This document shows, one piece after another, positions 59 to 35,249 of a stretch of DNA of 45,162 nucleotides. Position 1 is the first letter of the stretch, and each line of letters begins with the position of its first letter. A program made the position numbers and the translations under genes. Under the pieces are notes generated by a model. That model saw nothing but the letters and a program-made list of their open reading frames with translations. It was not told the DNA's origin and made no database searches. The stretch is taken from IMG/VR virus record IMGVR_UViG_2684623059_000002. One strand, 5' to 3'. This stretch comes from a virus. Its lineage: Duplodnaviria; Heunggongvirae; Uroviricota; Caudoviricetes.

Positions 59-2530
59 TTAAAAATCAGCCTGACTCGGGATCAGTTTTTGCCAGATAGC
101 TGAAACGTATTTTGCCTGGTAACGAGCGTCATCAAGTGCATTATGGCGCTCACCTTCGAATGGGATAGCAGTTCTGGCATCGAAGTCTATGGCTTTCCCC
201 AGCTCAACGATTGTGCGTATATCGCGATCGTTGTAGTAACGCCACGGGCAGGGGATCCCCTGCCGTTCGTATGAACGGCGCAAAATCGTGTTGTCGAAGT
301 TTGCTCCATTTCCCCAGACCTGAACAAAAAATTCACCGGAGTTTTCGTCGATAAATTCCCGCAATTGTAACAGTGCATCATCTAACGGGATTTCATCGGT
401 CATAATGGCAGATTGCGCTTCGCGTGATTGCTTAAGCCACCATTTAATGGTGTCCCGATCAATGACTCCGCCAGCAGTTTCCAGATCGACAGTCTTACTA
501 AATTCCGGTCCCATATCTCCGGTTTGCGGATCGAAAAATATTGCACCTATTGAGATAATCGGGGCATCAGGATTTTTTCCCATGGTTTCAAGGTCGATCA
601 TCAGATGAATCCCCGCTCTGCTGGTGGATGTGAGATTATGGTGACCGTTCACCTTAATTAAGGGATCTGACGCCTCGCCAGTTTCACTATCGCTGGCATG
701 ATGCTGATTGCCGCCAGAGTTCTCCTTGTGCTGATGCGCAGTGCCTTCCATTTCCTCCGGATCATTTTCCTGAACTTCAGGCTGATTCTCTTCATCGAAT
801 ATTTCCTGGTATGTTGCGTCGCCCATCACCGCACCACAATCAGGGCAGCTACCGCCGCCGGTCTGACCGCAGGCGGTGCAGGCTTTTTCCGGCTCCTGTT
901 GCGCTACTGGTTCAACCTGTTTCGTTTCTGGCTCGTTTTGTTGCGCATTTGGGCTGTTTTGTTCCGTTTTCTGGTCGTTCTGTTCCGATTCTTGCTGGTT
1001 CTGGTTTACAGAGTCGCGGGTTTCAATCCCCTTCACCCATTTCGGATCATTCGGGTCGCTAATCCCTGCAACAAATTCTCCGCGAGAGGCAGCAAGCAAC
1101 TTATCGGCGTCAGGCTGGCTGATATTGGCTGCCTGCATAATTTTGTTTACTTCTTCAGCGGTAACTTTTACCGGCTCTGGTTGTGCGGTCGTGTCAGATG
1201 CACCAGTATTTTGTTGTGAACCTGAGTATGTACCGTTTTTGCGGGCAAAATATTCTTCTTTCGTGATTTCAGTAGCCCCTGCAGTCAGCGCCTTATTCAG
1301 ACCAGAAAGTTTGTTTGCGCGACCATATTTTTCGCCATCCTTGTCGGTGAAGAGGAAGTAGAACGGCCCTTCACGCTCTACAGATGGTTCGACTTCCACT
1401 TTGCATTCGGTTTTTTCGTTGTCCGGAATTGCCGTTTCCACTGCATCAGTTTCTGGTACTGGCGACGAGAGAGTATCAGTTGCGCTCTGATTTGTTCCTT
1501 CATCTTCAAACACGCCCTTTGTAGTCAGGTATTCAGTAATGTATTTGTTCAGTGCCACAGGGGCTTTGTGAATGTCGATCGGACGTTCACGGACAAGGCC
1601 AAAAATAGTCTGGCGGTCGTAGCGAAGGGCATCAGGCTGTTTGCGCATTGATGCCGAGATACGCTTCCAGTCTTCGCGGTCGTTGTCGATAACTTCATTT
1701 TTTGCCCAGCGATGGATGCTGCCGTCAATGTTTCCGGCATCAATGTCACCAGGCCACAGAGCGTAGGCCAGTTCATCATCCAGTGTTTTCCATGTCTGCT
1801 TGTATTCGCGACGAATGGTGGCAGTGGCTGGGGGGGGGTTCGCTACTGAGTTTTCAGTGTTCTGCCGGTTGACTCTGGCGCGGGCAAGATCAACAACAGA
1901 CGTGTATTTCCCGGTTTCTTTGCGTTCGGCTTCGCGACGTTTTTTCCAGGTGCGTAATTCTGTCTGGATCTCAGGCCATTTTGCACCCGGCTTACATTTA
2001 TGTTTAACCCACCCGATGGCGAGCAGCTTAAGCTCTGAATACATGACGTTAACTTCAGGCATTTTCATCAATGCCTCAACGATATGCCCGTCGAATGTTG
2101 CCATGTCCTCCTGCAGTAATTCCTGAGCACTAATCACCATATCAACGGTGATGTTTTCACATGTACCGAACTTAACCAGGACCGCGTTCTGTACTTCAAG
2201 GGACAGCTTGTCAAAATTGACGTTCATCGGATCGGATTCTGGTTCGACCGGAATAAAGGAAGCGGATTCCTCATCCCAGCGGTTTTCCTGCATATATTCG
2301 GTATCCCAGGAGTCGATAGCAGGGCGGGGCATGCCGGGTTTATCCTCGCAGACAAGAAATTTATAAGCGCAGTCCTGAGCAGCCGGATATTGCTCCAGGA
2401 ATTGCCAGGTAAATTTGGCACGGGCGCGGCGTTCGTCACCGGCTTCAATGGCAGTGGCTACAGCAATTGCACCTTCTTCCTTTATTGCCTGTTCGTCCGG
2501 AATGGCGGCGCAAATAAAGACTTTACTCAT
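59..2530 (-). CDS. Prophage exonuclease-family protein (823 aa) with C-terminal DnaQ-like DEDDh 3'-5' exonuclease domain, central Cys cluster and Q/E-rich low-complexity linker
   Basis: C-terminal motifs MIDLETMG ... GNGANFD ... HNALDDARY match the DEDD exonuclease fold; CTACGQTGGGSCPDCG resembles a zinc ribbon; long intact ORF. Confidence 0.8.
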   Translation of the reverse strand: MSKVFICAAIPDEQAIKEEGAIAVATAIEAGDERRARAKFTWQFLEQYPAAQDCAYKFLVCEDKPGMPRPAIDSWDTEYMQENRWDEESASFIPVEPESDPMNVNFDKLSLEVQNAVLVKFGTCENITVDMVISAQELLQEDMATFDGHIVEALMKMPEVNVMYSELKLLAIGWVKHKCKPGAKWPEIQTELRTWKKRREAERKETGKYTSVVDLARARVNRQNTENSVANPPPATATIRREYKQTWKTLDDELAYALWPGDIDAGNIDGSIHRWAKNEVIDNDREDWKRISASMRKQPDALRYDRQTIFGLVRERPIDIHKAPVALNKYITEYLTTKGVFEDEGTNQSATDTLSSPVPETDAVETAIPDNEKTECKVEVEPSVEREGPFYFLFTDKDGEKYGRANKLSGLNKALTAGATEITKEEYFARKNGTYSGSQQNTGASDTTAQPEPVKVTAEEVNKIMQAANISQPDADKLLAASRGEFVAGISDPNDPKWVKGIETRDSVNQNQQESEQNDQKTEQNSPNAQQNEPETKQVEPVAQQEPEKACTACGQTGGGSCPDCGAVMGDATYQEIFDEENQPEVQENDPEEMEGTAHQHKENSGGNQHHASDSETGEASDPLIKVNGHHNLTSTSRAGIHLMIDLETMGKNPDAPIISIGAIFFDPQTGDMGPEFSKTVDLETAGGVIDRDTIKWWLKQSREAQSAIMTDEIPLDDALLQLREFIDENSGEFFVQVWGNGANFDNTILRRSYERQGIPCPWRYYNDRDIRTIVELGKAIDFDARTAIPFEGERHNALDDARYQAKYVSAIWQKLIPSQADF

Positions 2531-2653
2531 TTTGTTTTAACCTCATGACAGATTTAAGGATGAACAAATCCCTGCCATTGCTGGCATATAAGAATCAAAT
2601 CTGATGTATTCATTAAGCTGAATGTCGTATTGTGGCAGTTATTTTATTACTGC

Positions 2654-2875
2654 TCACCATGACTCTGCTTTTACAGGTAAACCATCACGACCAAGGAAGA
2701 CTTTAATCATGGTTTCCTTAATACAGTGTTGTGTGGAAAAATCACGAATATAGAGCCGTTGTTTTTTAATGTTGTTTACCGAAGCAATATATGTTCTTCC
2801 TTTATGAATAACATAATCACCGGGAGTCACGCACTGACGAGGAATTTCATCAGTTCCGAAGTGATGAGCAATCAT
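2654..2875 (-). CDS. Small hypothetical protein immediately downstream of DicF, in the dicB position of the operon; does not match the K-12 DicB sequence as I recall it
   Basis: ORF with GGAG about 6 nt upstream of the second Met (MIAHHF...); synteny with the Qin dicB operon. Confidence 0.5.
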
Positions 2876-3049
2876 AATTATCTCCATTTTTACAAATGAA
2901 CTTTGTTGATGCGGTGCCTGGTGCCTCCAGGTGACGTTAACCAGTTAACAATTAACGCCGGATACAGAGAATCCACCCATAACACTGTTTTTGGTTTTAA
3001 CTGTTCCACGTGCGCTTAGCCGCATTCACCGCATCACAAAATTCACTTT

Positions 3050-3107
3050 AAAAAGGGCGGCAGAGCAGTCACGGAGTAAAACTGATACCGCCAAACGCCA
3101 CCAGAAA
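3050..3107 (-). ncRNA. dicF: DicF small regulatory RNA (ftsZ-targeting sRNA of Qin-like prophages)
   Basis: Minus-strand sequence UUUCUGGUGGCGUUUGGCGGUAUCAGUUUUACUCCGUGACUGCUCUGCCGCCCUUUUU is near-identical to recalled E. coli DicF, including the GC hairpin and U-tract; correct synteny downstream of dicA. Confidence 0.8.
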
Positions 3108-3443
3108 ATTGATAACAGAGGGCGTTGTAGCGGGGTTGTCACTTAAGCGTATGGTCAACCTGACAACCCGGTGTCCTCAACGGGGAAGGAATAACCCCGC
3201 CATACTTACCGCCGCGCCATTTCGCGGAGTGCCACAACCGGAAGCGCACGGTCGAATTAAATTTAACGACACCGTACAGAGAGACCAATTTCGCCGTGTG
3301 CTTTCGCGTTATGCCCTGGCTTTTCAGGGATATATCCTTTCAGTAAACTGTCAGTACCGGATTCTTATCCGTGTCCGGCGCACGACCACACGTGACAGCG
3401 TGTTGGTCTCCATTTTTAACCCAGAACCTCAATGGAGGATAAA

Positions 3444-3653
3444 ATGCCAAACAAAAAAAGAAATCCGCTTATTGAAAAACAGATTGAATGCCTTGTAAAT
3501 CAACTCAGGCAATCAGGGTTATTAAAAACTCATTCAGAGTTGAGGCTCACAGAATCAGCATTCGACGATAAATTAAATAATGTCCTTTATAATGGCATTA
3601 TTGATTTTAATCGTTCTGTTGGTCGCCGCGGCCCTGCTGGTGTTTCCTTATAA
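3444..3653 (+). CDS. Hypothetical 69-aa protein, antisense to the dicB-type operon, AT-rich
   Basis: ORF with strong GGAGG RBS 7 nt upstream of ATG at 3444; stop abuts the convergent 216-aa gene; no family recognised. Confidence 0.4.
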   Translation: MPNKKRNPLIEKQIECLVNQLRQSGLLKTHSELRLTESAFDDKLNNVLYNGIIDFNRSVGRRGPAGVSL

Positions 3654-4304
3654 TTACCAGTCAATCCAGAGCGGACCGTGTTCAGCGTAAATATAACTGT
3701 ACACATCCAGATTATATTTGTGGTCTGTTAAGAACAGGCCGCAAATACATGCCGAAGCTTCCAGGGCAGCGGCTCTGTTACTGAATAACCATGTAGCAAC
3801 ATTCCAGCGTTTTTCTGCATCCCAGTCTTTCTCAAGGCCTGATACCATGAAGAAACCGTTAGTGTTGCCATCAAATAATTCTGTTTCCAGATTTTTAAGC
3901 AATGCCTGATGGACTCTTGCCAGGTATTCCGCCGGAATTTTGCCACGAATTCTGATGAGATTGTCATAAACAAACATGTTCCCCGCATATGGCGATTTTT
4001 CTTTCTTGTTTTTTAAACCAGCATCATGAGCAAACTGATCAATTTCTTCTTCCGTTGGTTTCGTATTGATGTTTTGCGCTGTCGTTTCTGCAATTTTATT
4101 TGCCACACTCTCTGAGTCGTGTTTATTTATAGACGCACAGAAATACAATCCGGTAAACGCATCGCGCACATTACGAGCTATATTATCAGTGTCTTTTTTC
4201 GTTACCGATTCCAATGCAAGTTCGTTCAGACGATGACGAAGTGTATGTGCTGCAATCTCCTGGATTGAAGTAGGTAAATCTTTAAATTCCATCGTCAACC
4301 TCAT
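3654..4304 (-). CDS. Hypothetical 216-aa protein inserted in the repressor-linked operon (moron; function unknown)
   Basis: Intact ORF with start overlapping the upstream gene stop (coupling); AT-rich relative to flanks; no recognisable motifs. Confidence 0.6.
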   Translation of the reverse strand: MRLTMEFKDLPTSIQEIAAHTLRHRLNELALESVTKKDTDNIARNVRDAFTGLYFCASINKHDSESVANKIAETTAQNINTKPTEEEIDQFAHDAGLKNKKEKSPYAGNMFVYDNLIRIRGKIPAEYLARVHQALLKNLETELFDGNTNGFFMVSGLEKDWDAEKRWNVATWLFSNRAAALEASACICGLFLTDHKYNLDVYSYIYAEHGPLWIDW

Positions 4305-4456
4305 CAGTCAGAGTTTCTTGCTAACCAGCGATGCGCGCCAGCTTCGGTTTTAAACGTTTTACTTTTGGTATACGTCATCGCGGTGAACGTGCCGTCCTGG
4401 TTGGGAAACACGTCGTACACCAGAGATTCGTTGTTGCCAAGATCGATAGTATCCAT
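4304..4456 (-). CDS. Small protein (50 aa) downstream of the repressor, YdfA-like position
   Basis: ORF beginning MDTIDLGNNES with GAGG RBS; synteny with Qin ydfA; track ORF 4304..4534 probably over-extended. Confidence 0.45.
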   Translation of the reverse strand: MDTIDLGNNESLVYDVFPNQDGTFTAMTYTKSKTFKTEAGAHRWLARNSD

Positions 4457-4540
4457 GCTGACCTCATTTCCCCTTAACGCCGGGGTAGCGGAACTGTTTG
4501 CTGAGAACACCGTGCGGTGTCTTGATGTAAGCAATATTAG

Positions 4541-4590
4541 CCATGGCTAACAATTTGGTCAAGCATTTTTGTTTGTCATAGCTAACATTC
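4541..4590. promoter_or_regulatory. Repeated operator-like motifs (TGGCTAACAAT / TAGCTAACATT) downstream of the repressor gene
   Basis: ccatggctaacaattt (4541-4556) and tcatagctaacattc (4576-4590) repeat the motif also found in the dicA-dicC intergenic region. Confidence 0.4.
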
Positions 4591-4622: not shown

Positions 4623-5030
4623 TTATCTTTTGTTTGTTCGTTGACGGGCTTTTAATAACTCTTCAAAGAGTTTGTTGAAATTTTTTACTCGGGCGCGCAT
4701 CTCGGTGAGCTGAGCATCCTGTTCTGATTCAGGCAATGCATTAAAAAGCTCAAGGAGCTCATGTTCTTTGGGGGATAGAGCAACTGGCTCCTCAATAGGT
4801 GGTGATGGCTGCTTGTCTTCATCGCCAAATAGAATCCATGTTGGCGAGCACTGCAGTACTTTGCTGAGGGCAAAAAGATTCTTTCCTGTAGGTTCGCTAT
4901 CATCCCGTTCCCATTGTGAAACCGATACATGAGAAATTTTCAGGGCTTTAGCAAGAGACCTTTGGGTGTATTTGAGGTTTTTTCGGCGATATCTAATGCG
5001 TTCGCCAATGGTTAGATTTTTTGTATCCAT
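4623..5030 (-). CDS. dicA: DicA-like HTH-XRE prophage repressor (135 aa)
   Basis: Near-identical to recalled E. coli DicA (…GERIRYRRKNLK.TQRSLAKALKISHVSVSQWER…); divergent from the Cro-like gene. Confidence 0.9.
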   Translation of the reverse strand: MDTKNLTIGERIRYRRKNLKYTQRSLAKALKISHVSVSQWERDDSEPTGKNLFALSKVLQCSPTWILFGDEDKQPSPPIEEPVALSPKEHELLELFNALPESEQDAQLTEMRARVKNFNKLFEELLKARQRTNKR

Positions 5031-34727: not shown

Positions 34728-35249
34728 TTATTTAATTATTCCGCATGCCAGTCTTGCGCCTCCCCCCCCCAGAGGAGCAGGTGAATCGGAATGATTATCC
34801 CCTCCGGCATGAATCATGATCGCCCGTTCTTTTATCTGGCTTATTTTTTTTATTTTTGGACTCAGAACCGGGTTTTCTGCATTTCCTTCTGAGTTGACAT
34901 AGAGTGCTGGTAGATCACCCAGATGGCCCTCCGGATTGTACGGCCCAAGATGTTTATTTGTTTGTTCAGGATCATAATGCCCACCGGCAGCAAGAGCTGG
35001 CACTTTTTTTCCATTAATCAGACCGGGATCACAACTGGCATTTTCATGGATATGAAAGCCATGTAACCCTGGTGGCAGTTCTTTCAGATGAGGAGTGAAC
35101 AGCAATCCGTAGCTGGTTTCTGAAATAGTTATTTCCCCTATATTTTTCCCTACTCCTTCTGAGGAAACGAGATTTACAGGGATCGTCATTGTATCAGCCA
35201 TTACGGCTCCACTAAGTAGCGCAGTTACAGCAAGTATTTTTTTTATCAT
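34728..35249 (-). CDS. sodC: Periplasmic Cu,Zn superoxide dismutase (SodC) moron
   Basis: Signal peptide plus Cu/Zn-SOD motifs (GFHIHE..., GGGGARLACGII); located between I and J on the opposite strand. Confidence 0.9.
   Translation of the reverse strand: MIKKILAVTALLSGAVMADTMTIPVNLVSSEGVGKNIGEITISETSYGLLFTPHLKELPPGLHGFHIHENASCDPGLINGKKVPALAAGGHYDPEQTNKHLGPYNPEGHLGDLPALYVNSEGNAENPVLSPKIKKISQIKERAIMIHAGGDNHSDSPAPLGGGGARLACGIIK

Follow-up and report, generated by a model that had tools for sequence, protein, structure and literature searches.

The DNA analysed here is a stretch of 45,162 nucleotides from a phage of the Caudoviricetes (the window), and its first 5 kb form the early-left arm of a lambdoid prophage, encoded on the minus strand. 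The gene of interest, kil, lies within this arm between the small RNA DicF and a large exonuclease gene (Table 1). Its reading frame opens with an ATG at 2875 and closes with a TGA stop codon at 2654–2656, which places the 73-residue product exactly where the original prediction had it. The ATG at 2887, an alternative start in the same frame, abuts the GGAG of the Shine-Dalgarno sequence on its 5′ side. As this is too near for that GGAG to be used, we rejected the longer product and take the 73-residue reading as correct; the same start has been chosen for kilR of Escherichia coli K-12 and by RefSeq. The ribosome-binding-site segment of kil is identical to the sequence upstream of kilR in the Rac prophage, and is unlike the sequence upstream of dicB in the Qin prophage (columns 290–335 of a three-way alignment).

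Table 1. Features of the window, in order of position; position 1 is the first nucleotide of the window
Feature	Position	Strand	Basis or remark
Exonuclease gene, 823 aa	59..2530	minus	Intact counterpart of the Qin pseudogene ydfE
G9 homopolymer	1830..1838		Within the exonuclease gene; C run on the coding strand
Spacer between kil and exonuclease gene	2531..2653	minus	blastn; 3′ swap junction in the interval from 2639 (Rac homology ends) to 2615 (Qin resumes)
kil (Rac-type Kil/KilR) CDS	2654..2875	minus	ORF listing; 73 aa plus stop codon
Structured DicF-kil leader	2876..3054	minus	Common to Qin (dicF-dicB) and Rac (kilS-kilR); three-way alignment, blastn
kil Shine-Dalgarno GGAG	2882..2885	minus	Read from the sequence, 6 nt 5′ of the ATG at 2875
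RefSeq "cell division inhibition protein DicB, incomplete"	2902..2985	minus	Pseudogene annotation just upstream of kil
DicF sRNA (antisense regulator of ftsZ mRNA) with terminator hairpin	3055..3106	minus	Rfam RF00039
69-aa gene	3444..3653	plus	PHROG 4274
36-aa ORF, MSFIMALLILIVLLVAAALLVFPYNYQ...	3580..3690	plus	Very hydrophobic; overlaps the 3′ end of the 69-aa gene in another frame
ydfA-like gene, first of the leftward operon	4304..4456	minus	Pfam DUF1391; 92% identical to K-12 YdfA
Sigma-70-like site, TTGACC-17-TAATAT	4562..4534	minus	Consensus match only
DicA-type repressor, presumed repressor of the dicF-kil operon	4623..5030	minus	93% identical to K-12 DicA over 135 aa; HTH_3
Four tRNA genes	13305..13614	plus	Met-CAT, Lys-TTT, Thr-TGT, Gly-TCC
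638-aa protein gene	13938..15854	plus	DUF1737, sialate O-acetylesterase SASA, DUF6645
C9 homopolymer	34762..34770
NleG gene	40650..41240	plus	Type III secretion effector
Pentapeptide-repeat SopA-like HECT-type ligase gene	41290..43662	plus	Type III secretion effector
NleC-type Peptidase_M85 gene	43916..44908	plus	Type III secretion effector

The arrangement around kil is that of the Qin dicB operon, with which it shares the DicA/DicC immunity genes, ydfA, DicF, a leader of about 175 nt, a small division inhibitor and a ydfE-type exonuclease. The immunity region is of the Qin type, unlike that of Rac. A divergent 76-residue protein is 96% identical to Qin DicC. The sigma-70-like site lies between the DicA-type gene and the ydfA-like gene. 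The scan for promoters and terminators gave no excess over chance (5 promoter-type sites found in the region against 5.7 expected). The exonuclease carries a Pfam Rv2179c-like 3′–5′ exoribonuclease domain (E 7.6e-67) and matches the exonuclease family PHROG 2082 over its full length, and the start region of its gene is 93% identical to the start of Qin ydfE by blastn. The protein is composite, with a centre resembling RecE/exonuclease VIII (NF007259, a partial match far below the cut-off) and the Rv2179c-like domain at its C-terminus. In Rac, by contrast, kilR is followed by the overlapping ydaE and then by racC and recE.

The rest of the window is also lambdoid, with O/P-like replication genes, Q, terminase and tail fibre genes. 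The 69-aa gene sits on the opposite strand within the leftward operon, where Rac and lambda have sieB. The tRNA genes lie 3′ of the Q antiterminator gene and are followed by the gene for the 638-aa protein. Type III secretion effector cargo occupies the right end of the prophage (40650..44908, plus strand). The two nine-base homopolymers are possible sites of slippage or sequencing error.

The Kil protein and its probable target

The kil product aligns without gaps with KilR of the K-12 Rac prophage (b1352), which has the same length, with 59 of 73 residues identical (81%) and 67 positive (E 2e-47). It matches the NCBIfam model NF008465, "FtsZ inhibitor protein", at 140 bits (cut-off 92), with residues 1–73 lying on profile positions 1–73 of 73, and PHROG 294, "Kil protein for bacterial septation inhibition", at E 7.9e-33. 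An identical sequence is deposited as RefSeq WP_000560212.1 (gene "kil") and as the "Kil protein" of Escherichia phage Evi. The homologues in precomputed annotations form 52 protein clusters, all at least 64% identical and all carrying Pfam PF27398. The family is narrow, since every cluster comes from the Enterobacteriaceae (Escherichia, Salmonella, Raoultella). PF27398 is newer than our local copy of Pfam-A, in which the reading frame found no match. K-12 KilR shares the NF008465, PHROG 294 and PF27398 assignments. The gene belongs to the Rac-type Kil family, and its sequence and genomic setting show each of the defining features that they can reveal. The RefSeq product name of WP_000560212.1 is "cell division protein FtsZ", a misnomer, as the protein inhibits FtsZ, and one that has spread to many database entries; the name should be Kil/KilR (FtsZ inhibitor).

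The family shows no variation at its N- and C-termini, and the window Kil has all of the family-invariant residues. The 14 differences from K-12 KilR are concentrated in residues 23–56. Comparison of kil with K-12 kilR gives a dN/dS of 0.17 (dS 0.66, dN 0.11), and the gene is therefore under purifying selection and not a relic. Together, the curated family match, the dN/dS and the 52 homologous clusters argue that the reading frame is more than a chance one. Sub-threshold Rfam matches inside the coding sequence (CRISPR-DR41, snoU49) were dismissed as chance. A profile search of solved structures returned noise alone (E ≥ 0.4) and no relative. The predicted fold, a generic SH3-like barrel, gives no specific indication of function.

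In K-12, interference of KilR with FtsZ function arrests growth and division (PMC10798246). Overexpressed K-12 KilR is known to prevent division, an effect that surplus FtsZ lifts (PMC10798246; Conter et al. 1996 as cited in PMC3105296). The antibiotics nalidixic acid and azlocillin induce both KilR and DicB, two prophage division inhibitors that help cells to survive (PMC3105296). From homology and this literature, we consider it very probable that the window kil encodes a Kil/KilR protein of the Rac type that blocks host division via FtsZ, and that it replaces dicB-ydfD in a Qin-type early-left operon. It is unlikely that the window allele has acquired another target or role, for example by acting on another envelope or division protein or by serving mainly in phage exclusion, which has been reported for DicB. 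Such a change would be consistent with substitutions that cluster in one segment between two family-invariant termini, and with the different operon context, in which kil lacks the ydaE that overlaps kilR in Rac. However, strong purifying selection at this level of identity to KilR usually means that function is conserved, and Rac-type alleles also differ from one another in the variable segment.

Two other prophage proteins are comparable in effect. The Kil of phage lambda (NP_040619.1, 47 aa) resembles the window Kil in its name, its early-left location in the PL operon, its reported inhibition of the FtsZ ring and its PHROG description. It differs in length and has no detectable similarity, with no blastp match to the product at E ≤ 100 and no tblastn match in the window at E ≤ 10. 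Conter et al. are said to have found in 1996 that Rac Kil acts independently of MinC. DicB acts through MinC (PMC11879457). DicB and Kil are alike in being small products of prophages and in halting division through FtsZ (PMC3105296), but share no sequence similarity by BLASTP or NCBIfam. The window Kil is analogous in function to both DicB and lambda Kil but homologous to neither.

DicF, the leader and expression of kil

DicF is complete in the window. It scores 76.4 bits against its covariance model (gathering threshold 48), covers model positions 1–52 of 52 and is nearly identical to K-12 dicF in the three-way alignment. From the 3′ end of the small RNA to the start codon there are 179 nt in the window, 174 nt between dicF and dicB in Qin and 175 nt between kilS and kilR in Rac. 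Because a full-length DicF lies upstream at a spacing like those of Qin and Rac, kil occupies the position of DicB, as had been claimed from the sequence at the outset. Rac differs in its upstream small RNA, KilS, which has another 5′ seed region (PMC8175672), whereas the window has a canonical DicF. KilS (K-12 Rac, L004 6406..6503, minus strand) takes the place of DicF and differs from it in the 5′ part, although its terminator hairpin is still of the DicF type; against the DicF model it reaches 39 bits, below threshold. Its 5′ part holds a 16-nt stretch, AUUGCUGUGUGUAGUC, that is identical to the RprA consensus.

The leader that follows is predicted to fold far better than shuffled controls (z-score −4.45), and its 2868..3053 portion forms a conserved, strongly structured element. 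In the predicted structure, a long-range stem joins two distant segments, one directly 3′ of the DicF terminator and the other ending where the Qin-type DNA gives way to Rac-type DNA. The leader resembles the Rfam family STnc100 below threshold (36.4 bits against a gathering threshold of 47, E 4e-6), and the Rac leader does likewise. A stretch of about 120 nt of the leader is also present in the P1-like phages P7 and D6.

By analogy with the Qin dicB operon, kil would be co-transcribed with DicF under the control of the DicA homologue. Upon loss of the DicA-type repressor, leftward transcription would pass through the ydfA-like gene and a 216-aa gene into dicF. Termination and processing would release DicF, which would repress ftsZ translation by base pairing. 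Read-through past the DicF hairpin would yield transcripts with the structured leader and kil, and the Kil protein would inhibit the function of the FtsZ ring at the protein level. The operon would then hit FtsZ twice, as DicF and DicB do in Qin, with a different protein. It is quite improbable that kil is instead a silent passenger, intact but unexpressed owing to the DicF terminator or to Rho-dependent termination. The 3′ end of DicF does carry a strong hairpin and a U-tract, which form an intrinsic terminator, and kilR in Rac is normally silenced by NusG/Rho-dependent termination, being expressed via read-through when this termination is weakened (PMC10798246). Yet the reading frame, the Shine-Dalgarno sequence and the leader are all conserved, selection has acted on the codons (dN/dS as above), and the same leader in Qin passes transcription on to dicB. 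Silence in the lysogen is moreover compatible with expression after induction.

Replacement of dicB-ydfD by kil

The boundaries of kil were mapped by blastn and by a three-way DNA alignment of the window, Qin dicF-dicB-ydfD and Rac kilS-kilR. Segment 3384..2895 of the window, which begins 5′ of dicF and stops 16 nt short of the dicB ATG, is 92% identical to Qin. The match to Rac, at 83% identity, runs from 3060 to 2639, beginning at the terminator of the small RNA and taking in kilR. From 2615 downward the window is again 93% identical to Qin, over the spacer that follows ydfD and the first part of ydfE. Halfway along the leader, the window follows Qin and not Rac. About 20 nt 5′ of the kil start codon the sequence switches to the Rac type (TGTAAAAATGGAGATAATTATG), which puts the 5′ junction at about 2895–2899, and it returns to the Qin type some 20–40 nt past the kil stop codon. 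The Qin-Rac-Qin pattern means that kil alone has taken the place of the dicB-ydfD cassette; ydaE, which overlaps kilR in Rac, is absent. The locus is an example of phage mosaicism in which the junction upstream of kil can be placed to within about 5 nt and the downstream one to within about 25 nt.

That kil is a diverged variant of DicB or YdfD has next to no likelihood: its position downstream of DicF and the "DicB, incomplete" pseudogene just upstream would speak for it, but the product gives no BLASTP alignment to K-12 DicB or K-12 YdfD at E ≤ 100, the NCBIfam DicB model NF049927 does not match the reading frame at E ≤ 0.1 yet scores K-12 DicB at 132.8 bits, and the RefSeq fragment is shared leader sequence that is in frame with dicB in Qin. 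PHROG 1251 (DicB) likewise passes over the kil reading frame and gives 134.1 bits for K-12 DicB. When the whole 45-kb window was searched by tblastn, DicB returned noise alone (E ≥ 4.5), as did YdfD. We rejected the RefSeq fragment as a DicB remnant, as it is the leader region. In phrog_24763, an N-extended DicB model, positions 1–29 match the leader ORF of the window and positions 36–72 match true DicB. By these comparisons, no real DicB coding sequence is left in the window, and the RefSeq neighbour of kil is an artefact of the shared leader. The lysis gene ydfD lies beside dicB in Qin; by BLASTP and tblastn, none accompanies the window kil.

The original prediction held that the product does not resemble DicB, which the alignments and the family model bear out, and named a comparison with DicB and YdfD as the check; in its sequence part, this finds kil to be a variant of neither. 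It further suggested that the gene could be an alternative small effector delivered by the same operon. This is right in so far as kil is an alternative small effector of the leftward operon in the DicB slot, marked by DicF (RF00039) and the spacing. The novelty that it implied does not stand, since the product is a known Kil/KilR, close to K-12 KilR and identical to an annotated "kil".

In lambdoid prophages, the FtsZ inhibitors DicB-YdfD and Kil are interchangeable occupants of the slot 3′ of DicF. The pairing of DicF with Kil is a routine product of lambdoid mosaicism. The 3′ arm of the predicted leader stem ends exactly at the swap junction. A tentative and rather doubtful reading is that the leader after DicF or KilS serves as a portable adaptor for expression and processing, behind which division-inhibitor cassettes (dicB-ydfD, kil, kil-ydaE) are swapped by recombination. 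Were it so, DicF with Kil would be a selected two-level block of FtsZ distinct from that by DicF with DicB, and might differ from it, for example, in independence from MinC or in the spectrum of phages excluded. No paper on the DicF-Kil combination was found in the literature searched.

Among 5,426 complete E. coli genomes, 116 cover at least 80% of the stretch from DicF through the leader and kil to the exonuclease gene (window 2500–3200), the best matches being 99.4% identical. The exact protein and the exact arrangement are thus already known, being annotated in public genomes and in one phage record. The shorter segment 2760–3110 is covered to at least 80% in 1,841 genomes, most of which have the Rac-type kilS-kilR. 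DicF by itself occurs in about 4,600 genomes, mostly with something else after it. Studies of DicF in pathogenic E. coli should allow for the fact that not every DicF copy is expressed with the same protein. Of the sequenced phages, Evi carries DicF and Kil in the identical arrangement, 12 are of the Rac type, and about 21 have DicF and the leader followed by another gene such as dicB.
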